DNA from: Corallococcus exiguus
Lineage (GTDB): Bacteria; Myxococcota; Myxococcia; Myxococcales; Myxococcaceae
Assembly: GCF_051058965.1 (NCBI RefSeq)
Contig: NZ_CP183924.1
Length of the DNA: 31,688 nucleotides
Reading direction: 5' to 3' (one strand)
Positions within the stretch are counted from its first letter, which is position 1; every line of letters starts with the position of its first letter. The position numbers and the translations under genes were made by a program. The notes beneath the pieces are model-generated. The model saw only the letters and a program-made list of their open reading frames with translations. It did not search any database and was not told the origin of the DNA. Below are positions 2,408 through 24,776 of this stretch, piece by piece.

Positions 2408-2651
2408 TACCTCCGGACGCTACCAGAGGCTTTTGGCGGGGCGCACGTTCTCCACGCGGGGGCAGGGCCGCCCGGGGCGTCCAGGAACGCCGCCTACCCC
2501 GCCGGATTCCGAAGCACGTGACTATGAATCCGTCCTCGCCCGGCGAGTCGCAAGGAACTGGAGGGCGCAGCTGCTATCGGTCCTTCAGCGAGCATGGAAA
2601 CGAGTGGTCGGATAGTCTTCCCGGGCAACCAGGTCGGATGGAGGGGCTGGC
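2408..2651. promoter_or_regulatory. Divergent intergenic region between the minus-strand TIR operon and the plus-strand MBL-CHAT-STAND-TIR operon; presumed bidirectional promoters
   Basis: 244 bp without credible coding, flanked by divergently oriented gene starts, each with a Shine-Dalgarno-like GGAGG. I did not identify specific -35/-10 boxes. Confidence 0.35.
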
Positions 2652-3734: not shown

Positions 3735-3749
3735 CCCCAGCCGTCCCTG

Positions 3750-5735: not shown

Positions 5736-5832
5736 AGCGGGCACCGCGCGGGGAGCTGGGAAAACTCCGACGTGCCTGCGGCCGGCAGGGCCACGACGAG
5801 GGCCATGAGGGCATCATCCTTCCGCCCCTGGC

Positions 5833-6063
5833 GGACATGAGCGCGTCCATCAGCGCCGTGGGCGAGTGCTCCCCGTCATCCAGGGGGGAGGAGTCGAGGA
5901 AGGCCAGACCCGAATCGCCACCGAGTGCTTGGTGCAGGGCTTCAGCCTGTGGACGGCTCGCATCTCGCGCGTAGGAGATGAAGACGGAATGGAAGCGCGG
6001 AGGGGTCACTTCCGATGGATGTCCCACCTCACTCCTTGAATCCAGCGGAACCTGGGTGGCCAT
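5833..6063 (-). pseudogene. TIR domain remnant (N-terminal ~55 aa of a TIR fold only, degenerate afterwards)
   Basis: Minus-strand ORF 5662..6063 contains RFHSVFISYARDASRPQAEALHQALGGDSGLAFLDSSPLDDGEHSPTALMDALMSAR. This gives the start strand FISYARD, alphaA, and a FLD...L..GE loop of a TIR, but then degenerates into RMMPSWPSSWPCRPQARR and runs into the 3' end of the CHAT gene. I read it as a truncated or frameshifted TIR gene fragment. Confidence 0.4.
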
Positions 6064-6154
6064 ATTGAACCCACCGGCCAGCCAGGTTCAACAAGGCACT
6101 GGCATGCATTCCGCTCGCGGAATGCGCGTCAGCCCCGAAGGATATTCCGCCCCC

Positions 6155-9955: not shown

Positions 9956-10008
9956 CGCCTGAGCCGGTATCCGCAATACGTTCGCCACGGCGCACGGGAG
10001 GAGCAGCG

Positions 10009-10833
10009 ATGCGGGTGTTCATCAGTTGGTCCGGGGAGAGGAGCAGGGCCGTGGCCACGGCCTTGAAGACGTGGCTGTCGGACGTCTTCCACGATGTGGA
10101 GCCCTGGATGTCCGAGCACGACATCGACGCGGGCATGCAGTGGGGCACCCATCTCAGCCAGCAACTGGAGGCCGCGAACTTCGGCATTCTCTGCCTGACG
10201 CCGGACAACCTCGCCTCGCCGTGGCTGCTCTTCGAGGCCGGCGCGCTCTCCAAGTTCATTAAGTCGGCACGTGTCGTCCCCTACAGGCTGGAGCTCAAGG
10301 CGACGGACGTCAGCTTGCCCCTCGCTCAGTTCCAGGGGGTTGATGCGGATGAGTTGGGGACGCTCAAGCTCCTGCAGAGCCTCAACGGCACCCGTGAGGC
10401 TCTACTCACTGACGAACGACTCAAGAAGCTGTTTGACAAATGGTGGCCCGACCTGAAGCTTGCCCTGCAAGCCGTTCCCCCTTCCAGAGGAGTGCCCGCC
10501 CCCAAACGGACCGACAGGGCCTTGCTGGAAGAGATCCTTCAGTTGGTCCGACAGCAGGCCCAGGCATCCACCGATACGCCAATACACAATGAAGACACGA
10601 TCTACGGCCCTCCTCCGACTGACACCTCAGCCGAGTCCCAAAGAGTGCTGAGTGTGCCCTTGCCGCCGAACGAGCCCGGGAACTTGCGCGGGATGCGCGT
10701 ACGCCACGCGCAGTTTGGCCTTGGGACCATTGCTGACGTGGAAGGAGCGGGAGCCAATGCCAAGGTCACGGTGAGGTTCAGTGGGCCAGTGGGTCTCAAA
10801 AGAGTTATCGCCCAATTCCTTCAGCCCGCCTGA
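10009..10833 (+). CDS. TIR domain protein (TIR_2-like) with a small C-terminal domain
   Basis: The track ORF opens at TTG 9952. The better start is ATG 10009, preceded by GGGAGGAG at -7: MRVFISWSGERSRAVATALKTWL...GILCLTPDNLASPWLLFEAGAL. FISWSGE.S and SPW..FEaGal are TIR_2 signatures, and the conserved Glu sits in FEAG. The C-terminal 90 aa (RGMRVRHAQFGLGTIADVEG...VRFSG) are unassigned. Confidence 0.85.
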   Translation: MRVFISWSGERSRAVATALKTWLSDVFHDVEPWMSEHDIDAGMQWGTHLSQQLEAANFGILCLTPDNLASPWLLFEAGALSKFIKSARVVPYRLELKATDVSLPLAQFQGVDADELGTLKLLQSLNGTREALLTDERLKKLFDKWWPDLKLALQAVPPSRGVPAPKRTDRALLEEILQLVRQQAQASTDTPIHNEDTIYGPPPTDTSAESQRVLSVPLPPNEPGNLRGMRVRHAQFGLGTIADVEGAGANAKVTVRFSGPVGLKRVIAQFLQPA

Positions 10834-10885
10834 GTTATTCGCCATCAGGACTACGGCGCTCTTGTGGCCGACATCCACTGCCAAT

Positions 10886-13800
10886 CTACGAAGCGGCCTT
10901 CTCCTCTGACGGATGCTGGTTCGAAACCACTTCGCGTCTGGCTTGCAGTGCGGTCATCAGCCAGTACAGCTCGTCGACGACCTCAACGCTCCACTCCGAG
11001 GTGCGCTCTGCGATGGCATGGCGCAACACTCCGATGCGTACTGGGCGAACCGCGCTACGTGAACGCATCATCCGGATGAATCGGGCACGATCCTCTCTCG
11101 ACTCGAATCGCTCCAGCCACTGGATGATTTCTTCCGGCTCCAGCGCGTTTGCGCCTATCTGCTCGACCTCTTTCCAGAGCTTGCGTCTGCGAAGACGCGC
11201 CGGAAGGCCACGCTTGAACCACACGAATTTAAGCACACACACGACAGCTATCCACACGCCGGAAACCACTATCGCAAGATCCCATTGGCGTAAAAAGAAC
11301 CACCATGCCAACGATAGCATCAATCCGACACCCGGCAGGACGACAATCAAAATCCGCCCCCAAAGCCGCCATACAGAGTTTTGAACCAACCCAAGCCAAA
11401 ACGGATACAAGAACCAGGCTGTCGTCCACTTCCCCTTGCGGCAGGCGAGATAGACATAGGCATCCCAAGAAGCCACTGCGAATGCCATCGAGATAGCCAA
11501 GGACCCGGGGATTCCAACCAGTGCCGCACTGCACAGAAACGCCATGCCCTCCAGTCCCGCGCGCATTGCAACCATGAAGTCAAAGTTCTCCGGATCTTCC
11601 CCGGGGGCGCTCCCCTTTGCTGATTCTCTGTGCCTGTGCCAAGGCAACTGAACCAACGCCCAGAAGACGGACATGATAAGCCCAAACGGCCTGGTGCTTA
11701 CTCCCGGCACGATCGAGGCAGGAGGCTCGTATTGGAGGGACAGCACCAACGTGACCAGCAACCATCCGATGGACAAGCAGCTCCGCCCCCACGCAGCCCG
11801 TCGGAGCAATTGAACAAGCTGGATGAACCCACCGGAATCCGGCAGACGTGAGACCTCGGCCAACGTGCGGTGCCAGAGCCGCGACAACTGGCCTGACCTT
11901 TCACGCTCCACGAGCATGCCTCTCACCGCATCGGCGATTGGCTCGGGCAGACGCCGAAGCCAGGAGGCCTGCACGTAGGCAACATCTGCCAGCACCTGAC
12001 TCCGGCTGTCGAATGCCGAAATCAGCAAGCCCTCGAGCTCCGGCGCCGGAACGAGCCCTGCCACACTGAGCGCGTCACGCTGATCCACCAAGCTGCCATT
12101 GTTGTATGCGAGGTGGACCAACTCTCCAATCGTATCGCGGAGCGAAGTGGGAACTTCATGGAGGCGCTCGCGCAAGCCTTCCTGGAGAAGCTCGAGTAGA
12201 TGCCGGACGCCATCCGGCCACACTCTGTAGATTCCTCCTTCCAGCGCGTCCTCCTCCTGCGGCTCCGGGGCCGTCGAGGTCTGCTCTTCTGGCCCCTCAT
12301 CATCCGACTGCAAGAGCGCAAGCATATCGTCGAGCGTCGCTTCCGCCTGCGCGATTAGTTCCTCGAAATAGGGGGAACTCGCGGTCTGCAGCAGTACCAC
12401 GCACGTCTCGCGCCAACGGTAATCGGTGAACAACAGCTCCGTGGAGATACGTGCGGGCTCGGCTTGAACCCAGCGAGTGGCGAGGAACTCCTGGAACCGG
12501 CGGTGCACGAAGGCGAACGACGGCTGCCCTTCAGGGGCTGTCCCGCGCTTCGCGAGCCTGAGCTCCCCCAAGACCTCCAGGACGTCGGAGAGCGACTCGG
12601 CTGGCAGAGAACGGCGTCGGAGCGAATCCGCCAGTTCTCCATGTATCGGCTCCATTCCCAGGCCCGTATCCGCCGACATGCAGAAGGCCAGGGCCTCCGC
12701 CGCCTTCCGGACGTCACCCGGCGTGAGCCCGCGTGTCCTGAGCTCTCCCGCGTGATGGGACAGCCGCTGGTCGAGAAATCTGTTGAAGACCTCGTGCTGA
12801 TGGCCGGGAGGCTTGTTCTCCTGCGCGAACCACGCGCAAAGCATCGCCAACAGGAGCGGATTCGTTCCGAAGACCGGCAGCCCCTCCGCCGACGAATCCA
12901 GCCAGCCCAGCAACTGCTCCACCTTCCGGCCATAGTGGAGGTAGCGCTTCGTCAGCCTGGCACGCCGCGCATCATCGAGCGGGAGGATCCGGTATTTTGT
13001 CCACCCGAACCGGGTGGGCCCGCGAAAGTGGCGCGACCCCACCATGGCACTGCACCCAGGGGTCCGGACGATGAAGTCGTTCAGCGCATATGCGTAATCC
13101 CGGACCGCATTGTCGTCTCCGGTCGAGGACAATACGGCCGGTATCTCGTCGAAGGCATCAAAGAGGAAGAGCCACTGCCGGTGACTTGCAGGTCTGCCGA
13201 GCAGGTCACGAAGGAGCGCTCCATCTGCTCCCAACGAATCAAGAACGAACTGTCGGACAGCGTCAGCGTCGGGTCTGGCCTTCGGGCGAAAGCCGCGAAG
13301 TGGGAGATAGAGCACGATCCTGAAGGGTTGACGGCCTCTCTTCCGGACAGTCTCCATCGCCTCCTTGAGGAGTTCCCGCGCGACCTGTCTCAGGACAACG
13401 CTCTTTCCTGCCCCTGGAGCACCTTCGAGGATGATGAACCGCTCCCGAGAGCGGACCAACGCCCGCGCAAGCCGCTGCTCCCTGCGCAGGCGGCGTTCTT
13501 CGAACAGCCGAGGGAGCAGGGTCTTCTGCTCCTCGGACTCCACCTCGGCTTCGAGGTCGGTGAAGTGAGACTCGCGCCAGGACACCTCCACGGGAGCGGA
13601 CCAATTCTCTTCCCAATCCAACCGCCGGATGCGTTCCGCGTGGGATTGGAGGAACTGGAGCATTTCCGGCGGAGACTGCTTCTGGGCCTCCTGCTTGGAC
13701 ACGAGCCCACGGATCCATTGGGTGAGCTCGGCGAGTTTTCCTTGGATTTCCTCCGGACTCCGCCCGCTCCAAAGCGGGCTCCCGCCGTTCGGCCAGAGAT

Positions 13801-14143
13801 TGCGCGCTTCGAGCCCGTCAACCGCCTTCCAGTCGCAAGGTGAGAGTAGCACTGGGACGAGCCGAAGCGCTTCCTGACGGCTGCGCTCCAGCAGTCGTGG
13901 CAGCTCGTACTTCTGGATGAATTCCGAGCCCAAGAAGTTCTCGGAGATGAGCAGGACCGCGATGCTCGCGCACTCGATAGCCTCGCGAATCGCAGGACGC
14001 CAAACGTCGCCTGGATCCATCCGCTGATCGACCCATATCCGCGCGAGGCCCTGACTCTCCAGGACCCGAAGCTGTCTTACGACCTTGTCGAGTGCCTCCG
14101 AGTCCTGGCGTGAGTAGCTGATGAAGATGAGTGGCGAGTCCAC
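10886..14143 (-). CDS. TIR - NACHT NTPase - C-terminal 6-helix transmembrane domain protein (membrane-anchored NLR-like)
   Basis: The ORF is open to 14614, but its first 157 codons are low-complexity and antisense to an IS3 orfA. The TIR begins at a GTG (complement of 14141..14143): VDSPLIFISYSRQDSEALDKVV...VLLISENFLGSEFIQKYELP. NACHT motifs follow: ILEGAPGAGKSVV (Walker A), LFLFDAFDEI (Walker B), AMVGSRHF, GTNPLLLAML, and FAFVHRRFQEFLATRWV (the F.H...QEFLAA box). The last 300 aa carry six hydrophobic segments (CLSIGWLLVTLVLSL, FGLIMSVFWALVQL, MAFLCSAALVGIPGSLAISMAFAV, TTAWFLYPFWLGLV, ILIVVLPGVGLMLSLAWWFF, LAIVVSGVWIAVVCVLKFVWF) and a basic tail. The start codon is uncertain. Confidence 0.8.
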   Translation of the reverse strand: MDSPLIFISYSRQDSEALDKVVRQLRVLESQGLARIWVDQRMDPGDVWRPAIREAIECASIAVLLISENFLGSEFIQKYELPRLLERSRQEALRLVPVLLSPCDWKAVDGLEARNLWPNGGSPLWSGRSPEEIQGKLAELTQWIRGLVSKQEAQKQSPPEMLQFLQSHAERIRRLDWEENWSAPVEVSWRESHFTDLEAEVESEEQKTLLPRLFEERRLRREQRLARALVRSRERFIILEGAPGAGKSVVLRQVARELLKEAMETVRKRGRQPFRIVLYLPLRGFRPKARPDADAVRQFVLDSLGADGALLRDLLGRPASHRQWLFLFDAFDEIPAVLSSTGDDNAVRDYAYALNDFIVRTPGCSAMVGSRHFRGPTRFGWTKYRILPLDDARRARLTKRYLHYGRKVEQLLGWLDSSAEGLPVFGTNPLLLAMLCAWFAQENKPPGHQHEVFNRFLDQRLSHHAGELRTRGLTPGDVRKAAEALAFCMSADTGLGMEPIHGELADSLRRRSLPAESLSDVLEVLGELRLAKRGTAPEGQPSFAFVHRRFQEFLATRWVQAEPARISTELLFTDYRWRETCVVLLQTASSPYFEELIAQAEATLDDMLALLQSDDEGPEEQTSTAPEPQEEDALEGGIYRVWPDGVRHLLELLQEGLRERLHEVPTSLRDTIGELVHLAYNNGSLVDQRDALSVAGLVPAPELEGLLISAFDSRSQVLADVAYVQASWLRRLPEPIADAVRGMLVERERSGQLSRLWHRTLAEVSRLPDSGGFIQLVQLLRRAAWGRSCLSIGWLLVTLVLSLQYEPPASIVPGVSTRPFGLIMSVFWALVQLPWHRHRESAKGSAPGEDPENFDFMVAMRAGLEGMAFLCSAALVGIPGSLAISMAFAVASWDAYVYLACRKGKWTTAWFLYPFWLGLVQNSVWRLWGRILIVVLPGVGLMLSLAWWFFLRQWDLAIVVSGVWIAVVCVLKFVWFKRGLPARLRRRKLWKEVEQIGANALEPEEIIQWLERFESREDRARFIRMMRSRSAVRPVRIGVLRHAIAERTSEWSVEVVDELYWLMTALQARREVVSNQHPSEEKAAS

Positions 14144-14285
14144 GGTGCCGCACAGCGTACATTGTTCCGCGGCCTTCGGTGCACGCCAGCGCCGGGAACG
14201 GTGGAGGGGAGCTTCTATCGCTGGGTCGCGAAGTTTAGCGTCACCCACTTCTGTGGACGCCCCCGATGTGATGGAAGGGTGTTCG

Positions 14286-14597
14286 ATGTCGGAGCGCGAG
14301 AAGAAGAGGCGGCCGCGACGTAGCTTCAGCCCGGAGTTCAAGTCCGGGCCGGTGAAGTTGGTGCTGGAGGAGAGCAAGTCCGTTGCGGAGGTGGCGAGGG
14401 ACTTGGACCTGACGGAGACGGCCTTCCGTCGGTGGGTGGAGCAGGTCCGAACGGACCGGGGCCAGGGCAAGCCAGGCGCCCGCACCAGCGAGGACCGGGT
14501 GGAACACTCCCAGTTGCGCAAGCGCGTGCGGCAGCTGGAAATGGAGAAGGAGCGCCTAAAAACTGCGGCGGCCTTCTTCGCGAAGGAGATGAAGTGA
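14286..14597 (+). CDS. IS3-family transposase OrfA (HTH + leucine-zipper)
   Basis: [53 protein letters not shown]...[28 protein letters not shown] is the conserved IS3/IS911 OrfA pattern (R..YS.EFK...V.......VA.......L..WV). GGAAGGG lies 7 nt upstream of the ATG at 14286. The track ORF extends upstream to 14121 with no domain support. Confidence 0.75.
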
Positions 14598-14893
14598 AGT
14601 TCCGCTTCATCCACGTGGAGAATGCATCCCTGTCAGCCGCCTTCCTTTGTCGCCAACTGGGTGTCTCCCGTTCGGACTACTACGCCTGGGCGAAGCGGCC
14701 CGAGTCTCAGCGGCGTCAGCGCGACCGCGAGCTGTCCGAGGAAGTGGCGGCTATTCACCGGCAAAGCCGAGGTACCTACGGCAGCCCCCGTGTCCATGCC
14801 GAGCTGCGCGCGCGGGGCCGCCGCGGCTCGTCATCCACCTGGCTCCGTCGCGAACCAGTTCTTCTCGACACTCGCCTCGGACGTCGAGGCTGA
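14432..14893 (+). pseudogene. IS3-family transposase OrfB, N-terminal fragment (HTH_21 plus the start of the integrase core, then degenerate)
   Basis: In the -1 frame relative to orfA: [75 protein letters not shown] matches the OrfB N-terminus. After ARG it reads [13 protein letters not shown], not the expected V.HKRV.RLM motif, and no DDE core follows. Confidence 0.6.
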
Positions 14894-14937: not shown

Positions 14938-17900
14938 TCAGTCGAGCGCGGCCCGCACGTCCCAGATACGCACGACGTGGTCTCCTCCTGCCGTGAGGAT
15001 GCGTCCGCCATCTGGACTGAATCCAACCGAGGTCACCCCACCGGACCGACTGGAAAGGCCCACACGAAGCTCGCGCGCCGCGAGGTCCCTGATGAGCGTT
15101 GTCCCGTCCTCCTGCCCCACCACACAGTGCCGCCCGTCCGGGCTGAAGCTGGCCGCTGTCAACGCCCTCGTCGTTCGAGACGACATGACGATCCCCCCGG
15201 TGTCGGCATTCCAGATGTTCAGGTTGCCATCCGCACCTGCTGTCACAATGCGTGTTCCGTCCGGACTGAAGCTGGCCGCATGGACCCGGCCTTGGTGTCC
15301 CGAGAGGCGGGCCAGATTCCTCCCCGAGCGGACCTCCCAGAGAAGCACGCTGCCACCGTCGCCTCCGGTGACGAGGCGCTGGCCGTCAGGACGGAAACCC
15401 GCCGTGAACACCGCCTCGGTGTGTCCCGCGAACTCCCCGACGTGCTGTCCGGAGGTCGCGTCCCAAAGATGCACCCCGCCATCACCACTCGCGGTGATGA
15501 TGCGCATCCCATCTGGGCTGAAGCTGGCGGCGTAGACCGTATCCAGAGGACCGTGCAGGCGACCTACAGCTTTCCCAGAGGCGACGTCATAGAGCCAGGC
15601 CCACCCAGTCAGGCCCGCCGCGATGATGCGCTGGCCGTTGGGACTGAAGCTGACAGCGAATACTCCACCCGCCGGCTCTCCGGTCATGAGTACCAGGGAG
15701 GCACCGGTCCCCGCATCCCAGAGTTCCACGGAGTTACCATCGTTCCCGGTGACGACCCGCCCACCATCCGGGCTAAAGCTCGCAACGAGGGCATCAGTCG
15801 CCAGCTCAGTGACGAGCCTGGGCTGGCCCCCTCGCTTCCAGGTACGAAGCGCAGAAAGTGAGCCCAGCAACCGCTCCATCTGCTGCGCTGTTTCCTCCGC
15901 CTGGGCATGGCCGATGGAGCGTCGATATTTGACGAGGACTTCCAGCAGTTTCCTCACGCCCTCCGGAATGCCTTGCATTGCTCGCATCTGGCCGAGCCCC
16001 CATGAAGCCAGCGCGATGCCTCGGTCGTCACGCCATGAGCGAGCGACCTCAAGCGCTTCCTCATAGTGCGCCGCAGCCAGACGCGGTCCGTGTTGCTCCT
16101 CCGCGAGCGAGGCAGAGGCAAGCAGGGCATCCACTTCGAGTTGGATGTCCCCTTCGATTGCTGCCTTCGCTCGGGCGCTCCGAAAACCCTCGGCAGCCGC
16201 ATCCTTCCTGCCATCCTGCCGGTCGAGACGAGCAATCATGTAGTCGGCCTCGGCGCTCACCTCCCCATGGGCAAGCTCTTGCTCGGCGATCCTTAGTAGC
16301 AGCGAGTGGGCCTCATCCCAGTCGCCCTGTTCCGACAGGAACCGCACCAGCTTGACGCCCCCCCCTGCCGACGACCCGGGTTTGAAACCCACCCCCATAA
16401 AGGCCTCGCGGCACGACTTCACCGCCTCCTTCCCTTGTCCGAGCTGTGACTGAGCGACGGCTAATTCGAGAAGGAAGAACGCTTGTTCCAAACCGTACAC
16501 ACGGGTGTGCGATGATTCCACCAGAGGCTTGAGCAATTGCTCCCTCTCGCGTGGCGTCCAGCGCAGGCGGAATAGCCACGGGACTTGCATCACCGGAGCG
16601 CGGAGGAGCGACGGCACTCTGTCGGGAGGTCCATGTTGAATCCACCATCTGAGCGCCCTGTCGATGTTCAGGCGCTCCTCGTCGAGCGCCATGATAGCCG
16701 CAGCTCGCTCCTGCCCCTGGGGCTTATATCTTTCAGTAAGGCCGGTGAAGAACTCCAGGAAGTATGTGGCATGCCGCAGGGCCGCCTTCTTCAGGTCAGG
16801 AAACTCCTGCTCAGGCTCCGTAATCAGCCGCACCGGCCACCACAACGTATAGCGACCCGCTCCAGCGACACGAATCAGGCCCGCCTCTAGCATTCGCTGG
16901 GCTGTCAGCGGCCCCCAGTACCCTTCACTCGGCTCCTTTGCAGGAGGGCTCGTCTTGTCGAGTACCACCACATCGGCGGCTCGCAGGTCAAAGCTCTCCG
17001 GAAACACGGCGAGCCAGCGGGCACGATTCAACAGTGCGGCATAGAGCCCGATTCGAGTTCCCGATCTCACCCTGGCCAGCACCGCGCCAATTTCGCGCAG
17101 AGGTGTGGCGAGAAAATGGCAAATTTCGGCGAGCTCAACTGCCACGTCACCCACCCCTGGTGCGACTTCGGTCAGCAGGTGTACCGCGGCGAGGGGCGTA
17201 AGCGGCGCGAGCCTTATTGACTCGAACCTTTCTTTGATGAGGAGCGGCGCACGGGAAGTCACCATGAGGAACCCGGAGCCCCCCTGAGGGCGCAGCTGGG
17301 CGATTTCCTCCGAGATGTCACTGGAGCCCCAGCGCCACGTATCTACGTCTTCCAAGACGAGCGCCAGCCGTCGCTCGGACAGCAGATAGTGGAAGTGCGA
17401 GAGCCAGTCCCTCCGAGAACCGACCTGCTCTGGCGCAATCGCCTCAACCACCCTCCGTGCCACAACCTCTGCAGACATCACCGGACCGTTCGGAAGTCTT
17501 TCGATCTGAAAGCACCCATAGGGAAAATCGTGAGCTATCCGTGCGAGCACCTGCCGGGCCCATTGCGTCTTGCCGACGCCGGGCTCGCCCGTGACGTTGA
17601 TAAAAACAACTCCACCGCGAATCAACCTCCCGAGCAAATCGGCCTGCTGCTCGTGCAGCATGGGGCCATCCTCAGGCGGTGGAAGCAGGAGCAACGCAGC
17701 CGGCTCGGCGGGGGCGATGAGGTACTCATCTCCCTGCAACGTGCGCAGGCGCAGAAAGCCGGACACGAAGGGAAGCTGGAGGTGCTCTTGCGGGCGGAAC
17801 TCGAGTCTTCGCCATCGCGTCTCGTGGAGGGGAAACTCGTTCAGCAGCACAAGCAGGTGCTGAATAGTGAGTTGCTCGTTCTCGGGCCTGGCCGTGAGCC

Positions 17901-19053
17901 ATTGCCTCGCGGGCACCAGCGAGATCATCCGCTCCCAGGGAGGCTCTTTGGACGCTCGCTCCGGGAGTACGTACACCGGAATGAAGAGGACTTCCGAGCG
18001 CCGCGTCTTTAGCTGTTCCTCAATGGAGGAGACCTCGTCGGCGAAAGCGCGGGATTCGAGCGCACTTTCGGAGACCAGCAGGACGAAGACATCCGCCTGG
18101 ACGAGCCAGCCCTCGATTTGTGCCCGCCACGAAGCCCCCGGCTTGAATTGCAGCGCTTCGAGCCCCGGGAAGACCTGGTGTTGCGTCCGCTGCAGCCCTT
18201 CCCGGATGGCATGGGCCAACTGCGGCACGGGGCCCCCCGAGGCCACGTAGCTGATGAAGATGCTCCGTGGATGCGGTGACGCCGCCTCCCCCTCTCCGCC
18301 ATCCGCCATGTCCAGCACCAGCGGCTCGGTTCGGGGGACCTCGATGGTGGTCTCCGCTCGGCCGGCCACCGGGCCCAACTCCACGAAGCCAGGGAACAGC
18401 CTCACGCCCACCTGGACTCGCTCCAGCCCCTGTGTGGCCATTCCCGCCATCCACTCGGGCACGGCCCCTGATGGAGGTGAAGCTGGCAGCAGATCTCCCC
18501 GGAGACGCGCCCGTGCCGCGACCGCCAGCAGACGCCCCTCGTCCAGCTCTCGCAGCTCGGAAGGAATGCGAGCACTGGCGCCCGCGGCCCAGTGCGCCAG
18601 GCTCGTCTTCTCGTTGCCGAAGAGCTCCGCCACCGCCGAACGCAGAAGCCAGCGCGCTCGCACAGGAGCGTTGGCGTCACCGCTGAACTGAAGGTAGTTG
18701 AGTTCTTCTTCCAGGCGCAGCGCCGGTGAGAGCCCCACATGGGCCTCCCTGGTGATGCGCCAGGCCTCGTCGTAGCGCTCACCTCCCCGCGCCACGAGCC
18801 TTTCGCGCAGGATTGCCCCCACGCCCTGTACGAACACGAAGCCTTCGGGGCCGCGGAAAGCGACGAGGCGGCCCAGCCACAGGTCGGCCTCGACGGACGG
18901 CTTCGCTCCAGGCAGCAACTCCAGGCGCAGCCGACGCAGCAGCAGGGAATCCACCCGGACCGCGAACGAGGCCAAGCATGCCAGCTCGAAGGCCTGGGGC
19001 TGCTCCTGAGCGGTCTCCTCGACCAGCAGACGCGCGGCCATGAGCGTCGTCAT
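14938..19053 (-). CDS. Third component of a MoxR-vWA-beta-propeller ternary system: N-terminal ~110-aa adaptor-like domain - TIR - NB-ARC/STAND NTPase - TPR - 7-bladed WD40 propeller
   Basis: 1371-aa ORF with ATG at 19053 and GGAGGAGG 8 nt upstream, inside the end of the vWA gene. TIR: RSIFISYVASGG...VFVLLVSESALESRAFADEV. NTPase: VVFINVTGEPGVGKTQWARQV (Walker A), LALVLEDVD (Walker B), LMVTSRAPLL. A helical TPR-like middle follows. The C-terminus has seven SFSPDG...W(D/N) WD40 units (FSPDGGRVVTGNDGNSVELWD ... FSPDGGRILTAGGDHVVRIWD). The N-terminal MTTLMAARLLVEETAQE...LWLGRLVAFRGPEGFVFVQGV region is unassigned. Confidence 0.85.
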   Translation of the reverse strand: MTTLMAARLLVEETAQEQPQAFELACLASFAVRVDSLLLRRLRLELLPGAKPSVEADLWLGRLVAFRGPEGFVFVQGVGAILRERLVARGGERYDEAWRITREAHVGLSPALRLEEELNYLQFSGDANAPVRARWLLRSAVAELFGNEKTSLAHWAAGASARIPSELRELDEGRLLAVAARARLRGDLLPASPPSGAVPEWMAGMATQGLERVQVGVRLFPGFVELGPVAGRAETTIEVPRTEPLVLDMADGGEGEAASPHPRSIFISYVASGGPVPQLAHAIREGLQRTQHQVFPGLEALQFKPGASWRAQIEGWLVQADVFVLLVSESALESRAFADEVSSIEEQLKTRRSEVLFIPVYVLPERASKEPPWERMISLVPARQWLTARPENEQLTIQHLLVLLNEFPLHETRWRRLEFRPQEHLQLPFVSGFLRLRTLQGDEYLIAPAEPAALLLLPPPEDGPMLHEQQADLLGRLIRGGVVFINVTGEPGVGKTQWARQVLARIAHDFPYGCFQIERLPNGPVMSAEVVARRVVEAIAPEQVGSRRDWLSHFHYLLSERRLALVLEDVDTWRWGSSDISEEIAQLRPQGGSGFLMVTSRAPLLIKERFESIRLAPLTPLAAVHLLTEVAPGVGDVAVELAEICHFLATPLREIGAVLARVRSGTRIGLYAALLNRARWLAVFPESFDLRAADVVVLDKTSPPAKEPSEGYWGPLTAQRMLEAGLIRVAGAGRYTLWWPVRLITEPEQEFPDLKKAALRHATYFLEFFTGLTERYKPQGQERAAAIMALDEERLNIDRALRWWIQHGPPDRVPSLLRAPVMQVPWLFRLRWTPREREQLLKPLVESSHTRVYGLEQAFFLLELAVAQSQLGQGKEAVKSCREAFMGVGFKPGSSAGGGVKLVRFLSEQGDWDEAHSLLLRIAEQELAHGEVSAEADYMIARLDRQDGRKDAAAEGFRSARAKAAIEGDIQLEVDALLASASLAEEQHGPRLAAAHYEEALEVARSWRDDRGIALASWGLGQMRAMQGIPEGVRKLLEVLVKYRRSIGHAQAEETAQQMERLLGSLSALRTWKRGGQPRLVTELATDALVASFSPDGGRVVTGNDGNSVELWDAGTGASLVLMTGEPAGGVFAVSFSPNGQRIIAAGLTGWAWLYDVASGKAVGRLHGPLDTVYAASFSPDGMRIITASGDGGVHLWDATSGQHVGEFAGHTEAVFTAGFRPDGQRLVTGGDGGSVLLWEVRSGRNLARLSGHQGRVHAASFSPDGTRIVTAGADGNLNIWNADTGGIVMSSRTTRALTAASFSPDGRHCVVGQEDGTTLIRDLAARELRVGLSSRSGGVTSVGFSPDGGRILTAGGDHVVRIWDVRAALD

Positions 19054-19057
19054 GCGC

Positions 19058-20023
19058 TCACCTCCTCCGGGACATCCCGCGCGCGGCCCGTACCATTGTC
19101 AGCGTCCAGTCCCATTCGAACACCTGCATCGCCGGCTCCAGTCCATGAGGCCAGCGCTCGGATGGGTAGGGAACCAGCGCCGCCACGGCCCCTCCCGCGC
19201 GGCGCACCCTCCCAATGAACTCCGCCCACTCCTCCAGCAGGGCGGGCGCATCACCAGGCGGCGGCATGCCAATCCCCAGGTCCGTCACGCACAGCACCCG
19301 CGTCCCCGGACGCGGCAGCCGCTCGGAACCGTAGGGCTTCCACCTGCGCCGCCCCCCACGGCCGCACCCACGGGTCGGACATGCGACGAAGTGCAGGACC
19401 TCGGTTCCTGCCCCCACGAGTTGGGAAATCTCCTCCTCCAGGCTGGCCACATCCCGCAGGAAGGGCAGCATGGCATCGCTGCGGTCCAGCAGAAGCTGTA
19501 CGCCATGTGCCAGCGTGGGGCGCAACCGGCGAGGAAGGCTCACCAGGACCTGCCCCCGTGCAATGGTCCGGACGATGGCTTCCAGGTCAGCACCGCCCTC
19601 CCCCGGGGTCGCGAGCAGCGCGCTTAGAAGTGCCCGGGAGCGCTGAGGTGCCAGGAGCGTATCCAGCACTGGAGCCGGGGCTGCCGGACGCGGCAGCGAC
19701 GAGAGACGACGCTCCGCCTGCAACCAGGACGGCGGAGGAGGAGGTGACCGCTTGAGGCGAGAAATGACCACTGGGAGAGCGCGCTCTTCGGATGCCGTCG
19801 AAACCTCGGGAGCGCGCCCTGATGGAGCCGATGGCACGGGACGCGGTGGCAAGGCCAGAAGTGGCTGCGGAAGCGACGTACTGGCGGGCTCGACCATGGC
19901 CATGGCGGACCTGCCGCCCAGTACGAGCGTGGCCATGGCTTTGCGCGTCGCTTCATCCGCGGGCATCAAGCAATCGAATGCACGCGCCAAGTCGCTCAGG
20001 GGGGAGGCGAAGCCGCGACTCAT
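19058..20023 (-). CDS. vWA-like (VMAP-type) protein with a Pro-rich N-terminal linker; MIDAS motif partly degenerate
   Basis: The ORF is open to a GTG at 20053. However, the ATG at 20021..20023 (MSRGFASPL) forms a classic ATGA overlap with the MoxR stop (20020..20022), so I favour it. The C-terminal half has a vWA-like strand and loop pattern: VQLLLDRSDAM (DxSxS-like, with the last Ser replaced by Ala) and VLCVTDLGIG (the hhhhTDG strand). Its position immediately after a MoxR ATPase is the canonical MoxR-vWA pairing. The fold assignment is inference. Confidence 0.55.
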   Translation of the reverse strand: MSRGFASPLSDLARAFDCLMPADEATRKAMATLVLGGRSAMAMVEPASTSLPQPLLALPPRPVPSAPSGRAPEVSTASEERALPVVISRLKRSPPPPPSWLQAERRLSSLPRPAAPAPVLDTLLAPQRSRALLSALLATPGEGGADLEAIVRTIARGQVLVSLPRRLRPTLAHGVQLLLDRSDAMLPFLRDVASLEEEISQLVGAGTEVLHFVACPTRGCGRGGRRRWKPYGSERLPRPGTRVLCVTDLGIGMPPPGDAPALLEEWAEFIGRVRRAGGAVAALVPYPSERWPHGLEPAMQVFEWDWTLTMVRAARGMSRRR

Positions 20024-20970
20024 CTTCCCGGCTCCTTCCGCCCATGCTTCCACACAGCGGCTTCCAGCACCTTCTGGAACGCGGCACTGTCGGGTGACAT
20101 CCTCAGCGCCACACAGCCGCGCAGGACATCCACGTACTCGGCGGGGCTGACCGAGGGCGGCTCGCCGTCTGGCAACATGGCCGTGGCCACGGCGACGAGA
20201 AGCGCGTCATCCAGCCCCGTGAATTGCGCCCGTCCCACCTCGATCAGTCGTTCCCGACTGGGGTACTCCAGCTTGAGCTCGATGCAGCGACGCAGGAACG
20301 CACCCGGCAGTTCGCGCTCGTCATTCGTCGTGACGAAGATGAGCGGGGGCCCACGGGAGGAGACCTCCACGAGCTGCCCGGTCTCCTCCACCTGGAACTG
20401 AAGGGAGCCCAGGGGGACGAGGAGGTTGTTGGGCGTGTCGGGGTCGGCCTTGTCTATCTCGTCAATGAGGACGACGGCACGTGGGCACGTGTCGTCCTGG
20501 CCGGACTCCTGAGCGCGCATGACGCGTCCAGCGGAGCTGCTGGCATGCTGCTTCCTGGCGCTCGCCTCATCGAACGCCCACCACAGGGGACCTGGCACCA
20601 CGTAGGGGCCGTAGCCCGGGTCGAACCTGCGCTTCGGGCTCTGTGCATCGTGGAGGCGGCGCAGATGGTCCACCTGCCAGAGCATGTCCCTCGCCTGGGT
20701 CCGAGAGGTGACGACCTGCTCGTAGTAGCGAAAGCCGAGGACCTTCGCCGCGCTCCGGGCCAGTGAGCTTTTGCCAGTCCCGGACGGCCCCCGCACCAGG
20801 AGCGGGCGTCCGGTTGCCAGCGCTATGTTGACCGCGAGGATGATCTGGTCGGTATACACATACGTCACCACGCGACGCTGGTCGCCTGCGGCAGGGGGCA
20901 GCTCGGCCGCATGCTCGACTGGCTTCGGGTCGAAAAGCTTGTGGTACGTGAGCGCGGTGATTTCGGACAT
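20020..20970 (-). CDS. MoxR-family AAA+ ATPase (AAA_5 / CbbQ-NorQ-like)
   Basis: 316 aa with ATG at 20970. LLVRGPSGTGKSSLARSAAKVLG (Walker A), AVVLIDEIDKADPDTPNNLLVPL (Walker B, DE), and FVTTNDERELPGAFLRRC (sensor and Arg finger). Its size and motifs are typical of single-domain MoxR ATPases. Confidence 0.85.
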   Translation of the reverse strand: MSEITALTYHKLFDPKPVEHAAELPPAAGDQRRVVTYVYTDQIILAVNIALATGRPLLVRGPSGTGKSSLARSAAKVLGFRYYEQVVTSRTQARDMLWQVDHLRRLHDAQSPKRRFDPGYGPYVVPGPLWWAFDEASARKQHASSSAGRVMRAQESGQDDTCPRAVVLIDEIDKADPDTPNNLLVPLGSLQFQVEETGQLVEVSSRGPPLIFVTTNDERELPGAFLRRCIELKLEYPSRERLIEVGRAQFTGLDDALLVAVATAMLPDGEPPSVSPAEYVDVLRGCVALRMSPDSAAFQKVLEAAVWKHGRKEPGR

Positions 20971-20983
20971 GACTTGACGATCC

Positions 20984-22201
20984 TCACTTCATCAGCTTCA
21001 GGTACTTGAGCTTCTTCTCGTAGAGCGTCCAGAAGGGCTGCTCTATCTCTGGCGCCAGCAACGGCTGCAGCAGCACGATTCCCGCCTCTTCCACCTGGTC
21101 CTTCGGAGGAATATCGCTCCCTGTCAGGAAGAAGAAGGTGACTCCCCTGAACTCCGCGCGAAGGGCATCCATCGCCGCCTTGTCCACTCCGCAGAGTGGT
21201 AGAGCCACGAAGACGGGCTCCGCTTCACTCCTCAGGAGTTCGAGGAGCTCGGGTACGTCGTCAGGAGAAACCTTGAGCTCGTAGGCCAGGGCCGTGCGCA
21301 CCATGCCCTTCAGCTCATCGATGCCCCCGCTCCCCACCACCCCATCGACCTTCGCGACGCGCCAGGAGTCATTCGCGGGGAGATCGCACGCGCCAACCAC
21401 GTACAGCCACGCCGTCCGCGGGTCGTCGCCATTCAGCGCAAGCACTCCGGGCTGCTTTTCGACCTTGCGAATCTCCGCCACCGAGCGGAAGTCCACCCAG
21501 GAGGTCGCGATGAGGGTCATGACCTCCTCGAGGGTGGCAACGCTTGGGAGCCGTGAGCGGAAGGCCCGAACGCCCTGGGTGGCCTGCTCCAGCCCCACCG
21601 CCATCAAGCCCAGTGCGACCTTCATCGGCAGGTCCGTGTCGAGAACCCAGGGGGCCAGGAGCGCGCCGACCTTGTCGGCAGCTGCTTCCAGGTCAGCGGA
21701 ATTCACGTCCTTGAGCAAGCCGCACAGCCGTCGTGCGTGGCGCTCGGCGGCGGAATCCGAGGACACGTGCGATTCCAGGTAGTCAATGATGCGCTGGATG
21801 GCCTCGTCTCGTGGGACATCTCCGCGGATGGCCTGGACGTCGGCGATCCGCGCGGGCTCCAGCGGACTCTCCTCGACCTGCTTCTCCGTCACCGGCGCGA
21901 GGTAGACGGGGATGAGGATGAAGCGGCCCCGCTCGTTCCCATGCCGGTAGGCCAGCACGCTGGCCTCATACGCGACGTAGCGTGACTGCAAGGCCGCTGA
22001 CGACACCAGCAGCACCGCGGCATCACACCCGCCAATCCAGGCATTGAGCGTGGAGCGCCAATCCTGGCTCAACTCGAACTCGTCCTTGTCGAGGAGCACC
22101 CTGTAGCCTTCATCGCGCAGACGCTGCGCAAGCTCGTCGCGAAACTGCTCACCCGCCGGCTCCTTCGACGAGTGGCTGATGAAGATCCGTGGGCGCGGCA
22201 T
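20984..22201 (-). CDS. TIR domain protein with a C-terminal domain of about 270 aa and unknown function; first gene of the MoxR-vWA operon
   Basis: 405 aa with ATG at 22201. MPRPRIFISHSSKEPAGEQFRDELAQRLRDEGYRVLLDKDEF...AVLLVSSAALQSRYVAYEASVLAY...FILIPVYL is a clear TIR with the conserved Glu in AYEAS. The remainder is alpha/beta and unassigned. Its stop lies 11 nt before the MoxR start. Confidence 0.85.
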   Translation of the reverse strand: MPRPRIFISHSSKEPAGEQFRDELAQRLRDEGYRVLLDKDEFELSQDWRSTLNAWIGGCDAAVLLVSSAALQSRYVAYEASVLAYRHGNERGRFILIPVYLAPVTEKQVEESPLEPARIADVQAIRGDVPRDEAIQRIIDYLESHVSSDSAAERHARRLCGLLKDVNSADLEAAADKVGALLAPWVLDTDLPMKVALGLMAVGLEQATQGVRAFRSRLPSVATLEEVMTLIATSWVDFRSVAEIRKVEKQPGVLALNGDDPRTAWLYVVGACDLPANDSWRVAKVDGVVGSGGIDELKGMVRTALAYELKVSPDDVPELLELLRSEAEPVFVALPLCGVDKAAMDALRAEFRGVTFFFLTGSDIPPKDQVEEAGIVLLQPLLAPEIEQPFWTLYEKKLKYLKLMK

Positions 22202-22916
22202 GGCTAGGGCAGGAGGATGCAGCCCCCTGTCGGAGGGAGTCTACGCGAAGGCCCTACCCCTGGGGACTCCCGTTCTCGGAAGCGTCCCCCGGACGAGCGT
22301 ATCGGGGCTCGGGACGGACCGGATTCCCGCCCCGAGTTCCCGACGGCGCAAGCCCTCCGCGGCAACTGCCGTATCAACCCCGTCGGCACCGACGCAGGGC
22401 CATCACGGTCCCCACCAGCATGCGGCCCCAGAGAGGCGCGCTGCCAGCTGCGGCGCAGCCTCCGCGCTGTCCACGACGATGTCCGTACCGCCTGTTTCCG
22501 CCGGACCGCCACGGTTGCTCAGCGAGTACTGCCCCGTGGCTCCAGAAGCGCCAGCCTCGTACCCAAGCTGGACGGACGCGGGTGGACCTCCATGGACGCT
22601 CCACCCGCCCTGCCCCAGAGTGGATCCGGCCGACCCTCAATCCCTCCGGGCACCTCGCGGATCGGGGTGGCGGGGCTTCAAAACCGGTGAGGGGCTGCGA
22701 GAGCAGTCCCTTGCGAGTTCGATTCCCGTGCCCTACCGCCACCTTCCAGCCCTTGACCCACCCGCGGCCCGCTCTGGACTTTCCAGAACGGGCCGTGGTG
22801 CTTCAACGTCATGTCATGGCTCAACAGGAGCAGTCATGGAGCAGCTGTAGCCATGGCTGGTCATGTGGAGTGGGTGGGAAAGGCGCGTTGAAGACAGCCG
22901 GCGTTGAATGCTGGCG

Positions 22917-24776
22917 TCATCCCTCCGCGTGGCGTAATCCCTTCGCGCTCTCCTGCACGCATGCTCGGTTCACGAAGACGCGGAATCCCCCGCGTGCGCC
23001 CTCCGGCAACTCCGCGCTCAAGTCCAAGGCCTGCAGCGCGATGTCCCGCTCCATTTGCACGAGCCGGGGGTCTTCACGCTCCTCCGGGCCGAAGACGAAG
23101 GCGCAGTACTCGCCGGACGCGATGCTCGCCACGAGCGTCTCCGGCCGGAGCTCCGTGTAGAAGGACTGCCAGTAGCGACCATTGCGAAACAGGTAGAGCT
23201 GAAGAACCTTGTACCGGGGCGAGATGAAGCTCTCATGCCCGGGCGGCAGTGGTTCCAAATAGGGGCGAAGGATCTCCGCGATCTCCTTGTACGGGGGTTG
23301 AGGCGCAGTGAGCTCGTACGCCCCGAAACCAGCCAGTGACAGCGCGGAGAGGCCACCGATGAGCGCCGTCGCTCGCGCGCGCTCGATGCGAGCCGCCGCA
23401 TACGCCAGGAGCCAGGCGCCCCCCACCCCGAGCGCGTGCGCGCCAACATAGACAGGCGTGATGTCATCGCGCTTCAGCCCCCGAGCATGAGCCGCCCCGA
23501 TGAGGAGCACTGCCGCGGCCGAGAAGTAGCCCGCGACCCTGAGGGCTCGACGGGCCGGTGCCCTCCGTGGATTGAGGGTGCCCTCCCTGGCAAAGAGCGC
23601 CGAAGCACCAAGCCCGGCCAGGCCATAGAGGAATGGCAAGACGCCCAGGATGTAGAGCGACTCCTTGATGGCGGGGAGCGAGAGGGGAACCAGGCTTGCG
23701 AGCCCGAAGCCGATGGCGCCGAAGAGCCCGGCCGCGGTCGGCGCACGCCGCTTCAAGGCGGGGAGCGCAGCCAGAAGGAGGGGGCAGAGGAAGAAATGCT
23801 CCCGGTAGAGGATCGCCGGGTAGTACCAGGAGGGATGACTCCATTCCGTGGGCACGCCCGCCCCAGCCAGCTTCGACCCTCCGATGCTCTGCCCCAGGAA
23901 GGGTGCGAAGTAGACCTGGGTGAGCCAGAGGGCGACATCCGTGGGTGACCGCAGAGCAACGAGGGCGAGGTGGAGGGACGCCGTGGCAAGAAAGCCGACG
24001 GTGATGCAGGCGACAGGAACCAGCGCCAATTGACGCCGCTGGAGACGCACGATGGCAAGGAGCCCTAGCGAAGCCAGCACGAAGGGGGTGACGAGCCACA
24101 GCTTCGTCAAGAAGCCAAGGCCGAGGCATGCGCCACCCAGCAGGGAGTGCCAATTCCTCCCGGTGAGCTCTCCTCGCGCAATCCAGTACGTGCCCGCCAT
24201 GCCCCACGCCACGAGGACAGGCTCGGCCTCCATCAGCCGGAATTGCCACAGGACGGCAGGAGAGAGCGCGAGCAGGAGCGTCGTCAGGAGCGCCGCACGA
24301 CGCTCCCACAGGGCGACGAGCCGATAGGTGAAGCAGAGGGTGGCGGCCAGCGCCGCGAATGAGACGAGCCCCATGGCTTCGGGCCGGCCGCCCAGGGGAC
24401 AGCCTCCGAGTGCGAGGAGCACCGAGTGAAATGGAGTGTTGCCGATGCCTGGCAGATCGAAGCCGACCCAATCCTCCGAGCCGCCAGGGATGTACGAGGG
24501 CCGCACCACGAGCGCCAGCGAACGGCACATGTTGAGGGCCATCGTGCCATTGACGCCCTCGTCACCTGTTTCGATACGCTTGAAGACGACGCCGCGCGCG
24601 AAGGCCAGGGCAAGGGAGGCAATGACCACCACACGGACGACGAAGCGCAGGCGATTGTCGTCATCACGCCGCGGCCCAAGCAGCTGGACGGGGGGAAACC
24701 ACGAGCCTGGCCAGAGAAGTCTCATTTCCGCCAGGCCCGGGGCAGGTGGGCACGAGAGTGGAGCCATTCCTTGCAC
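22917..24776 (-). CDS. GT39 / ArnT-family (PMT_2-like) membrane glycosyltransferase
   Basis: Polytopic membrane ORF. RLRFVVRVVVIASLALAFARGVV...DEGVNGTMALNMCRS...YIPGGSEDW...GLGFLTKLW matches the N-terminal loop (DE...nM..sgdw) and the GxxxLTKG region of dolichyl-phosphate-mannose/ArnT-type transferases. The first ATG is at 24776; an alternative ATG at 24725 (MRLLWPG) is also plausible. Confidence 0.7.
   Translation of the reverse strand: MQGMAPLSCPPAPGLAEMRLLWPGSWFPPVQLLGPRRDDDNRLRFVVRVVVIASLALAFARGVVFKRIETGDEGVNGTMALNMCRSLALVVRPSYIPGGSEDWVGFDLPGIGNTPFHSVLLALGGCPLGGRPEAMGLVSFAALAATLCFTYRLVALWERRAALLTTLLLALSPAVLWQFRLMEAEPVLVAWGMAGTYWIARGELTGRNWHSLLGGACLGLGFLTKLWLVTPFVLASLGLLAIVRLQRRQLALVPVACITVGFLATASLHLALVALRSPTDVALWLTQVYFAPFLGQSIGGSKLAGAGVPTEWSHPSWYYPAILYREHFFLCPLLLAALPALKRRAPTAAGLFGAIGFGLASLVPLSLPAIKESLYILGVLPFLYGLAGLGASALFAREGTLNPRRAPARRALRVAGYFSAAAVLLIGAAHARGLKRDDITPVYVGAHALGVGGAWLLAYAAARIERARATALIGGLSALSLAGFGAYELTAPQPPYKEIAEILRPYLEPLPPGHESFISPRYKVLQLYLFRNGRYWQSFYTELRPETLVASIASGEYCAFVFGPEEREDPRLVQMERDIALQALDLSAELPEGARGGFRVFVNRACVQESAKGLRHAEG

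Follow-up and report, generated by a model that had tools for sequence, protein, structure and literature searches.

A 31,688-nucleotide (nt) stretch of the Corallococcus exiguus genome (RefSeq assembly GCF_051058965.1, contig NZ_CP183924.1), called the window below, carries an operon of four co-directional, tightly coupled open reading frames (ORFs) on its minus strand (14938..22201, ~7.3 kb). The operon encodes a TIR protein of 405 amino acids (aa), a MoxR-clade AAA+ ATPase, a small protein with a predicted von Willebrand factor A (vWA) fold, and a 1371-aa NLR-like sensor protein. We put at roughly 0.7 the probability that these genes form a mobile immunity or programmed-cell-death cassette built on the MoxR-clade ATPase and its vWA partner. 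The cassette would most likely function as an ATP-gated switch that links a sensor to TIR enzymes in an immune or cell death response. The coordinates of the genes and domains are listed in Table 1.

The composition of the cassette was derived from related loci, which were obtained by looking up exact proteins, scanning species-representative genomes and searching plasmids. The loci were scanned in six frames with hidden Markov models (HMMs) built from the alignments of this analysis. The order of the core was strict in all 13 loci with enough upstream sequence to be counted (13/13): a TIR protein with a shared C-terminal domain (TIR-Cdom), the MoxR ATPase, the vWA module and a conserved N-terminal domain (N-domain). 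These loci belong to Corallococcus, Myxococcus fulvus, M. landrumensis, Pyxidicoccus, Hyalangium, Thermoanaerobaculia, Planctomycetota, Longimicrobium and metagenome contigs, so that Myxococcota, Acidobacteriota, Planctomycetota and Gemmatimonadota are represented in addition to the metagenomes. The same core order was found on two mobilizable linear plasmids of Streptomyces. In every case the N-domain (~255 aa) comes after the vWA module, heading the next gene or fused to that module. Fusion of the two in one polypeptide was seen in four proteins (P0014, P0016, P0143, and P0147), and STAND and WD40 modules follow the fused N-domain in three of them. One metagenome contig (L013) carries a true three-gene system consisting of TIR-Cdom, MoxR and a vWA-Ndom-STAND-WD40 protein.

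The module that follows the N-domain is variable. A TIR-NB-ARC-TPR arrangement without WD40 is present in M. fulvus, C. interemptor, and Hyalangium, and a degenerate TIR-like or sigma-like region followed by STAND-TPR in M. landrumensis and Pyxidicoccus. Two loci (L004 and L008) have a winged helix-turn-helix domain (wHTH; Trans_reg_C) and then STAND, with WD40 encoded by a separate gene. Single loci have a Metallophos domain with a weak SLOG match (L015), NB-ARC-TPR (L017), a CHAT protease (L018), or a sigma-70 region-4-like domain (L010) at this position, and L007 has no inserted module there and continues with two propellers. Conflict systems typically show such replacement of an output module, and the variability seen here supports a conflict role. 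Most relatives lack the WD40 propeller, and among the myxobacteria the fourth protein is without it in five related loci (M. fulvus, C. interemptor, Hyalangium, M. landrumensis, and P. parkwayensis), indicating that it is a lineage-specific sensor accessory and not a feature of the family. The gene directly 3' of the C. interemptor cassette encodes a 509-aa protein that combines RTX calcium-binding repeats with a Peptidase_M91 effector domain (L003 14306..15835).

The cassette is mobile. Its sites in the genome differ among species, and transposases flank it in M. fulvus, in M. landrumensis and on one plasmid. A housekeeping MoxR cluster conserved in synteny, the possibility that the initial annotation of this DNA had set against its own proposal, is therefore excluded, as the flanks vary and transposases and plasmids are present.

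The vWA-fold protein (321 aa) had no family match in Pfam, NCBIfam, PADLOC, or PHROGs, a 136-sequence profile of its family retrieved nothing from the PDB sequences, and a comparison with phage genomes gave no matches. An AlphaFold (AF2) model was built with the 136 family sequences and had a mean predicted local distance difference test score (pLDDT) of 87.6 and a predicted template modeling score (pTM) of 0.71. The model comprises an N-terminal helical hairpin, a proline-rich, low-confidence linker (residues 36 to 124), and one vWA-like domain, with no propeller. When it was compared with the PDB by Foldseek, the four best matches were NorD vWA domains in NorQ-NorD complexes (E values of 4e-6 to 2e-4; probabilities of 0.91 to 1.0), and the midasin MIDAS domain was also among the top structural matches. 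NorD serves a MoxR-class ATPase as its vWA partner. The fold-defining aspartates of vWA domains sit where strands 1 and 4 of a six-stranded Rossmannoid fold end (PMC7159879). Both are kept in the family, D180 in 136/136 sequences and D248 in 133/136. The model thus supports a vWA fold that is visible by fold and not by sequence methods; the initial annotation had staked its proposal on such a fold being predicted for 19058..20023, and the model, the NorD matches and D180/D248 bear it out.

The vWA family is large. A profile search of 1.84 billion representatives, each standing for a cluster at 50% identity, retrieved 2,733 representatives at E values up to 1e-3 and 1,182 at E values up to 1e-30. 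The family of ~2,700 clusters spans at least five phyla and includes the two Streptomyces mobilizable plasmids. Because it is absent from Pfam, NCBIfam, and PADLOC, this component is unnamed in current annotation, while the TIR and MoxR genes are named. In some relatives a TIR domain stands ahead of the vWA module in one protein (P0133, P0154, P0048, and P0079; L015 8001..9905 and L016 6079..7494), and cassettes with such TIR-vWA proteins hold up to three TIRs.

The ATPase (316 aa) had AAA_5 as its best general match in Pfam (E value of 4.5e-12), and its nearest PDB sequences were midasin and dynein AAA modules. It contains a Walker A motif (GPSGTGKS, residues 61 to 68) and a Walker B motif (VVLIDE, residues 166 to 171), both of which are kept in the orthologues together with an insert of ~60 residues between them. 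The orthologues also share the stretch TTNxERELPxAFLRRC, and a sensor-1 Asn and an RR pair are conserved. The N-terminal 60 residues contain no Trp, and the conserved motifs in this region are YxKxFxP and GDxRR..YVY. The orthologues on the Streptomyces plasmids are named "MoxR family ATPase" by the NCBI pipeline. By these motifs and matches the protein is placed in the MoxR/midasin clade of AAA+, in line with its initial designation as a MoxR ATPase, with which the AAA_5 match, the Walker motifs and the vWA-fold neighbor agree. Among named families, the ATPase matched NCBIfam NF047784 ("MadB family AAA-type ATPase") best, but its 74 bits are far short of the cutoff of 475, and the MadB family is treated here as a distant relative only.

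The stand-alone TIR protein had been described initially as an extra protein at the head of the operon. Since TIR-Cdom comes first in 13/13 loci, the 405-aa protein is instead a constant third component of the core. Exact-sequence look-ups of the proteins of the window returned no record; the 405-aa protein shares 100% identity with a protein of C. exiguus. Its putative catalytic Glu, E79 (codon 21965..21967), is invariant in 27 homologues and aligns with the Glu in the "WTEYE" motif of AbTir, which we take to be the catalytic E208 in AbTir numbering, with E642 as its counterpart in SARM1. The profile of the protein family matched an AbTir-type chain in the PDB (7uxr_A; E value of 3.5e-11), and the match was confined to the TIR part. 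E79 shares one alignment column with E340 of the second TIR in the sensor protein (codon 18034..18036), which likewise aligns with AbTir E208. A Glu occupies this column also in the 1242-aa NACHT protein, the 293-aa TIR-tudor protein and the 314-aa CAP12-type protein of the window. The initial annotation had noted the putative catalytic Glu in all four TIR domains aligned by eye; the alignment now extends this to five TIRs of the window. The E79 and E340 TIRs carry the putative catalytic Glu of the NADase type and are predicted to be competent.

The remainder of the 405-aa protein, the C-domain (265 residues), had no Pfam match even at an E value of 10 and no sequence match in the PDB. Its conserved motifs are SWVD, W280, EPVFVALP, FPxVTFFxLTG, and E387. 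All C-domain homologues have a Pfam TIR domain except P0175 (249 aa), which is probably a fragment, and TIR was the sole significant family in a Pfam scan of the 27 TIR-Cdom homologues. The bpX, VMAP, and EAD models, proposed initially as a check on the class of the system, gave no bpX or VMAP match in the Pfam searches. VMAP-C and VMAP-M matched neither the 405-aa protein (E values up to 10) nor its 27 homologues (E values up to 1), and the EAD models retrieved a single EAD8 match among the 27 proteins at an E value of 0.14, which is the level of chance. When the C-domain profile was compared by hhalign with the STAND, vWA, and N-domain profiles, nothing significant was found (P of 0.12 for the STAND profile of the fourth proteins).

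Additional features were seen at the TIR-Cdom gene in some relatives. A gene for a DUF4231/SLATT effector with two transmembrane segments lies directly 5' of it in two distant loci (L016 2734..3726 and L018 4465..5352); in L018 the two genes overlap by 4 nt at the start of the TIR gene. This arrangement suggests that the SLATT protein is an optional membrane effector driven by a TIR product. On the Streptomyces europaeiscabiei plasmid (L017 4408..6480), TIR-Cdom has an extra N-terminal DpdA-like domain (Pfam DpdA, E value of 1.2e-47, residues 7 to 151).

Domain scans of the 1371-aa protein agreed with the order read initially from its sequence (N-domain, TIR, NB-ARC-type STAND, TPR, and seven-bladed WD40), with the NB-ARC and TPR matches being weak. 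The TIR-NB-ARC-repeat layout is well known in bacteria. The N-domain had no Pfam match and, in a profile search, no PDB match. The STAND NTPase has a Walker A motif (GEPGVGKT) at residue 489 and a Walker B motif (LVLED) at residue 565. Its NB-ARC score of 21.9 bits is just under the cutoff of 23.5, and NACHT also matches weakly, but NB-ARC is over the cutoff in orthologues from M. fulvus (35.1 bits), Hyalangium (28.2 bits), and L017 (41.2 bits). The TPR matches were all below their cutoffs and are clearer in the orthologues. The WD40 region, strongly matched at residues ~1085 to 1368, also matched 2ymu_A in the PDB (E value of 9e-101) and has seven repeats ~42 aa apart, with five exact SFSP[DN]G motifs and two variants (GFRPDG and GFSPDG).

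The four genes had been described as co-directional and translationally coupled, and the coordinates, spacers and overlap agree with this. Genes 1 and 2 are separated by a 13-nt spacer that contains GAGGA. Genes 2 and 3 overlap at an ATGA stop/start, with AAGGAG ahead of the overlap, and genes 3 and 4 are separated by a 4-nt spacer with GGAGGAGG ahead of it. The mechanical ORF of gene 3 runs to a GTG at 20053, but its start was set at the ATG at 20023 because all homologues begin at the corresponding "MS..". No intrinsic terminator-like site was found on the coding strand within the operon. In the gap upstream of the operon, neither a sigma-70 consensus match nor an Rfam match was found, and its Arg/Pro/Gly-rich ORFs have no counterpart 5' of the TIR genes in 12 related loci. 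The gap holds only short imperfect repeats, such as a 17-nt GGCG.A.CCCT.CGCG present three times.

Table 1. Genes and domains of the cassette, followed by the upstream gap and the other conflict-type genes of the window
Feature	Coordinates	Strand	Size or residues	Basis or remark
TIR + C-domain protein	20984..22201	-	405 aa	
TIR domain	21782..22201	-	residues 1-140	Pfam TIR_2 E 9e-17 at residues 6-123
C-domain	20984..21781 (stop codon included)	-	residues 141-405	kept in 27 homologues
MoxR-clade AAA+ ATPase	20020..20970	-	316 aa	
vWA-fold protein	19058..20023	-	321 aa counted from ATG	
N-terminal helical hairpin	19919..20023	-	residues 8-34	helices 8-19 and 24-34 in model
vWA-like domain	19109..19651	-	residues ~125-305	model and Foldseek
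N-domain-TIR-STAND-TPR-WD40 protein	14938..19053	-	1371 aa	
N-domain	18268..19053	-	residues 1-262	kept in every locus examined
Second TIR	17854..18267	-	residues 263-400	Pfam TIR_2 E 3.7e-10 at 265-389
STAND NTPase, NB-ARC-like	16504..17661	-	residues ~465-850	AAA_16 E 7.7e-6
TPR-like helical repeats	15949..16491	-	residues ~855-1035	weak TPR_12, TPR_16 and other TPR matches
WD40 propeller, seven blades	14938..15801	-	residues ~1085-1371	WD40 E 4.7e-42 and many propeller models
Upstream gap, presumed promoter and leader	22202..22916	-	715 nt	without conserved ORF
CAP12/Pycsar-type TIR protein	1463..2407	-	314 aa	
CHAT protease with TPR-S	3750..5735	+		
DUF4062-nSTAND5 protein	5978..9955	+	1325 aa	
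TIR + C-terminal PcrA/UvrD-tudor protein	9952..10833	+	293 aa	
TIR-NACHT protein	10886..14614	-	1242 aa	

A mechanism can be proposed for the core, in which TIR-Cdom would be the constant effector and would be followed in fixed order by the AAA+ ATPase, the small vWA protein and the N-domain that heads the variable sensor/output protein. The TPR/WD40 array would recognize an invader- or danger-derived ligand, and the STAND NTPase would then switch and oligomerize. The vWA protein would grip the N-domain, as is suggested by the relatives in which both are one polypeptide. Once the sensor fires, the MoxR ring would spend ATP on remodeling the vWA/N-domain complex, and this remodeling would license the TIRs through E79 in the constant TIR protein and, here, also through E340 in the sensor. 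The licensed TIRs may cleave NAD+ or make a nucleotide signal, leading to growth arrest or death of the infected cell. A nucleotide-signal output would agree with the SLATT and SLOG-like partners seen in some variants, and a suicide or abortive one with the variants that carry CHAT or Metallophos. The model follows Kaur et al. 2020 (PMC7159879), and a variant that runs from sensor to MoxR to effector was proposed by Dore et al. 2024 (PMC10907252). We infer the remodeling step from the chaperone logic of NorQD, midasin, and RavA-ViaA, and likewise infer the partners bound, the order of events, the NADase activity, and the trigger.

Several results weigh against a mobile immunity or cell death cassette of this kind. 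No experiment on the cassette was found in the literature searched. The contacts proposed for the C-domain and the N-domain are guesses. An EAD-style homotypic pairing of the C-domain with the N-domain of the 1371-aa protein was considered, but BLASTP and hhalign comparisons were both empty, and this pairing is therefore not supported. In the vWA family the MIDAS serines are degenerate (D-x-[S77/G52]-x-[A67/G49/S12] in 136 sequences) and a complete DxSxS is absent, so that metal-mediated ligand capture may not operate. The ATPase had no match to the canonical MoxR model AAA_3 in Pfam, and it scored 32.3 bits with bpMoxR (PF20030) against a cutoff of 27, with model positions 13 to 85 of 205 alone being covered. 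In PADLOC-DB v2 the cassette matched only generic TIR or P-loop segments, with no match for the vWA-like protein. Finally, the wHTH and sigma-like outputs in variants suggest a signaling or transcriptional response rather than cell death.

MoxR-vWA-centric ternary conflict systems were predicted by Kaur, Burroughs, Iyer & Aravind in eLife in 2020 (PMC7159879). The initial annotation had assigned the operon to the beta-propeller class of these systems. The cassette is indeed a probable MoxR/vWA-centered, TIR-armed conflict system, but it does not belong in the beta-propeller subclass, since its vWA protein has no propeller, its TIRs are constant and its P-loop is standard. It resembles the Kaur class as a whole in having a core of a MoxR-clade AAA+ ATPase and a vWA protein with both aspartates kept, a third component with an N-terminal TIR, the order third component, MoxR, and vWA, replaceable domains downstream of vWA, and an occurrence in multicellular myxobacteria and Streptomyces. 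It differs in having no significant VMAP-C, VMAP-M, or bpX match and no VMAP-type N-terminal motifs in MoxR. The vWA protein is also mostly a small separate gene and not the head of a multidomain giant, and an N-domain of ~255 aa after vWA is not among the features described in the text of PMC7159879 that was read. Accessions of Corallococcus, M. fulvus, and iSTAND systems had no match in one supplementary table file of that paper.

Three of the described subclasses (beta-propeller, VMAP, and iSTAND) have to be considered as homes for the cassette. It is improbable that the operon is a canonical MoxR-vWA-beta-propeller system (subsystem 4) that gained TIR effectors. The ATPase and its orthologues do score over the Pfam bpMoxR cutoff, and in the window the fourth protein has a variable N terminus followed by TPR and a beta-propeller, as does the third component of that class (PMC7159879). 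However, the bpMoxR match is partial, there is no bpX match, and the vWA protein of the class strictly carries a propeller of ~four blades, conventional effector modules are lacking from the class, and its MoxR often has a GXXXTAKS P-loop (PMC7159879), whereas the cassette has a propeller-free vWA protein, constant TIR effectors and a GPSGTGKS P-loop, and its fourth protein lacks WD40 in the five loci named above. A divergent VMAP or iSTAND ternary system (subsystems 1 and 2) is a more serious candidate, if still a doubtful one. VMAP systems have the strict order VMAP, MoxR, and vWA, with a third protein that ends in VMAP-C, and their vWA proteins have an N-terminal helical extension, an unstructured linker and variable domains beyond vWA (PMC7159879). 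The cassette shares this order, the extension and the linker, and its vWA is fused to variable domains in some relatives; a [D/E]xxx[D/E]xxxa motif is not evident in its vWA protein. The iSTAND systems, said to dominate in proteobacteria, have a MoxR without extensions and an inactive STAND protein, often with an N-terminal TIR, as the third component (PMC7159879); VMAP proteins can also have such a TIR, and motifs of the C-domain read by eye from the alignment (LALNGxxxxTA, EPVFVALP, and VTFFFLTG) could be P-loop-like remnants. Against both, the 27 TIR-Cdom proteins had no VMAP-C, VMAP-M or significant EAD match, and the Trp-free N terminus of MoxR cannot contain the WxhapG and PsWRxa motifs of VMAP systems (PMC7159879). 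The comparison of the C-domain with the STAND profile was not significant, and the vWA N terminus has two helices in the model instead of the four-helix, CoxE-like domain of iSTAND systems (PMC7159879). No iSTAND match was obtained in the Pfam scans, whose model set may hold no such family. By Pfam models and published descriptions, the cassette is of the MoxR-vWA ternary type and fits none of the four described subclasses cleanly. It may, as a tentative proposal, represent a distinct, unnamed class with three family-specific modules (a small vWA with a degenerate MIDAS, a sensor-docking N-domain and the TIR C-domain), in which the AAA+ ATPase would mechanically gate an NLR-like STAND sensor and pass activation to a separate TIR.

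The remaining alternatives depart further from the ternary systems. A nonlethal threat-sensing pathway, in which a TIR-made second messenger alters expression or activates other defenses, is unlikely, although it has points in its favor. The wHTH and sigma-70-like modules of variants would suit it, the SLATT and SLOG-like partners imply nucleotide signaling, and work on the Esr pathway of oral Actinomycetes ties MoxR-vWA to transcriptional and secretion responses (bioRxiv 10.64898/2026.09.08.750141). Esr resembles the cassette in that a diversified propeller sensor is coupled to conserved MoxR and vWA proteins, but its sensor is secreted and built of Ig repeats, it employs a kinase/phosphatase pair and its FHA outputs are tied to Esx secretion, with no TIR and no STAND (bioRxiv 10.64898/2026.09.08.750141). 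The window copy has two TIRs bearing the NADase Glu and no DNA-binding output, and the CHAT and Metallophos effectors of variants are typical of suicide or abortive systems. It is far less plausible that a TIR/MoxR/vWA trio and an independent TIR-STAND-WD40 protein are neighbors by chance. Stand-alone bacterial TIR-STAND and NACHT proteins do exist, and one is encoded just downstream (10886..14614); however, the N-domain follows vWA in 13/13 loci and on both plasmids, is fused to it in four proteins, and is separated from it by 4 nt here. Hardly credible at all is a housekeeping chaperone pair for metalloenzyme maturation of the RavA-ViaA, NorQD, or CbbQO type. The closest solved folds of the vWA protein are NorD in NorQD complexes, but no metalloenzyme partner is conserved nearby, the flanks vary and contain transposases and plasmid backbones, the constant partners are TIR and STAND proteins, and AAA_3 does not match.

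The cassette can further be compared with systems that share single components. NorQ-NorD, the AAA and MIDAS parts of midasin, RavA-ViaA, and CbbQ-CbbO likewise pair a MoxR/midasin-clade AAA+ ATPase with a vWA/MIDAS domain, but they mature metalloenzymes or ribosomes, whereas the partners in the cassette are TIR and STAND proteins on mobile DNA. As in Avs, bNACHT, and the eukaryotic TNL and Apaf-1 architectures, the fourth protein of the cassette combines an effector (here TIR), a STAND NTPase and a repeat sensor (here TPR/WD40), and its Walker motifs are intact. Known bacterial NLR-like defense proteins such as Avs and bNACHT act singly or with small partners; in contrast, the sensor of the cassette has the extra N-domain, an obligatory MoxR/vWA pair and a second TIR protein. 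In comparison with TIR-based defense systems (Thoeris ThsB, the AbTir-type NADases, TIR-SAVED, and SPARTA), both TIRs of the cassette are of the bacterial TIR_2 type with the catalytic Glu, and their nearest solved sequence is the AbTir-type chain 7uxr_A. Unlike Thoeris, TIR-SAVED, and SPARTA, the cassette has no ThsA-like, SAVED, or Argonaute partner, and its TIR is fused to a C-domain found only in the cassette.

Computational prediction assigns a large part of bacterial immunity to MoxR-vWA ternary systems, and the one related experimental study found in the literature searched is that on Esr (bioRxiv 10.64898/2026.09.08.750141). A system of this kind was predicted in 2020 and is hence not categorically new. 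What appears to be new, judged from the published descriptions of the 2020 classes, is the definition of the cassette by a vWA family of ~2,700 clusters without a curated model, together with the C-domain and the N-domain. That an NLR-like sensor is obligatorily tied both to a separate TIR enzyme and to an AAA+/vWA pair also appears to be new. The compact, coupled operon offers mutational handles (two TIR glutamates, two Walker sets and two vWA aspartates) that make the predicted class directly testable. The division into constant parts (TIR-Cdom, MoxR, vWA, and N-domain) and replaceable ones (the sensor and the second effector) provides a basis for the design of expression constructs and chimeras. 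Should an NLR-like sensor and a TIR effector prove to be licensed by an AAA+/vWA pair, NLR/TIR immunity would gain a new regulatory principle, and the chaperone-dependent activation of NLRs in eukaryotes would have a bacterial parallel. If the cassette is a distinct class as proposed above, it would be the first case of ATP-driven remodeling as a licensing step in NLR/TIR immunity.

In the window, the cassette sits in a dense cluster of conflict-type genes (1463..14614; Table 1), and these neighbors support its reading as a conflict cassette. The end of the DUF4062-nSTAND5 gene overlaps the start of the TIR-tudor gene, and the two are translationally linked. The combination of a TIR with a PcrA/UvrD tudor domain in one protein is an unusual pairing; in helicases, the PcrA/UvrD tudor domain binds RNA polymerase. 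Within the TIR-NACHT gene, positions 11001..12000 have a G+C content of 0.59, compared to 0.62 to 0.70 elsewhere in the window, with a strong negative GC skew and a positive AT skew. This composition is compatible with a foreign origin of that part of the island. On its upstream side the cassette is adjoined by a gene for a PMT-family glycosyltransferase on the same strand (22917..24776). A PMT-family gene also adjoins the cassette in an unrelated metagenome contig, where it lies downstream on the opposite strand (L013 8991..10619), and the adjacency in both loci may be a coincidence.

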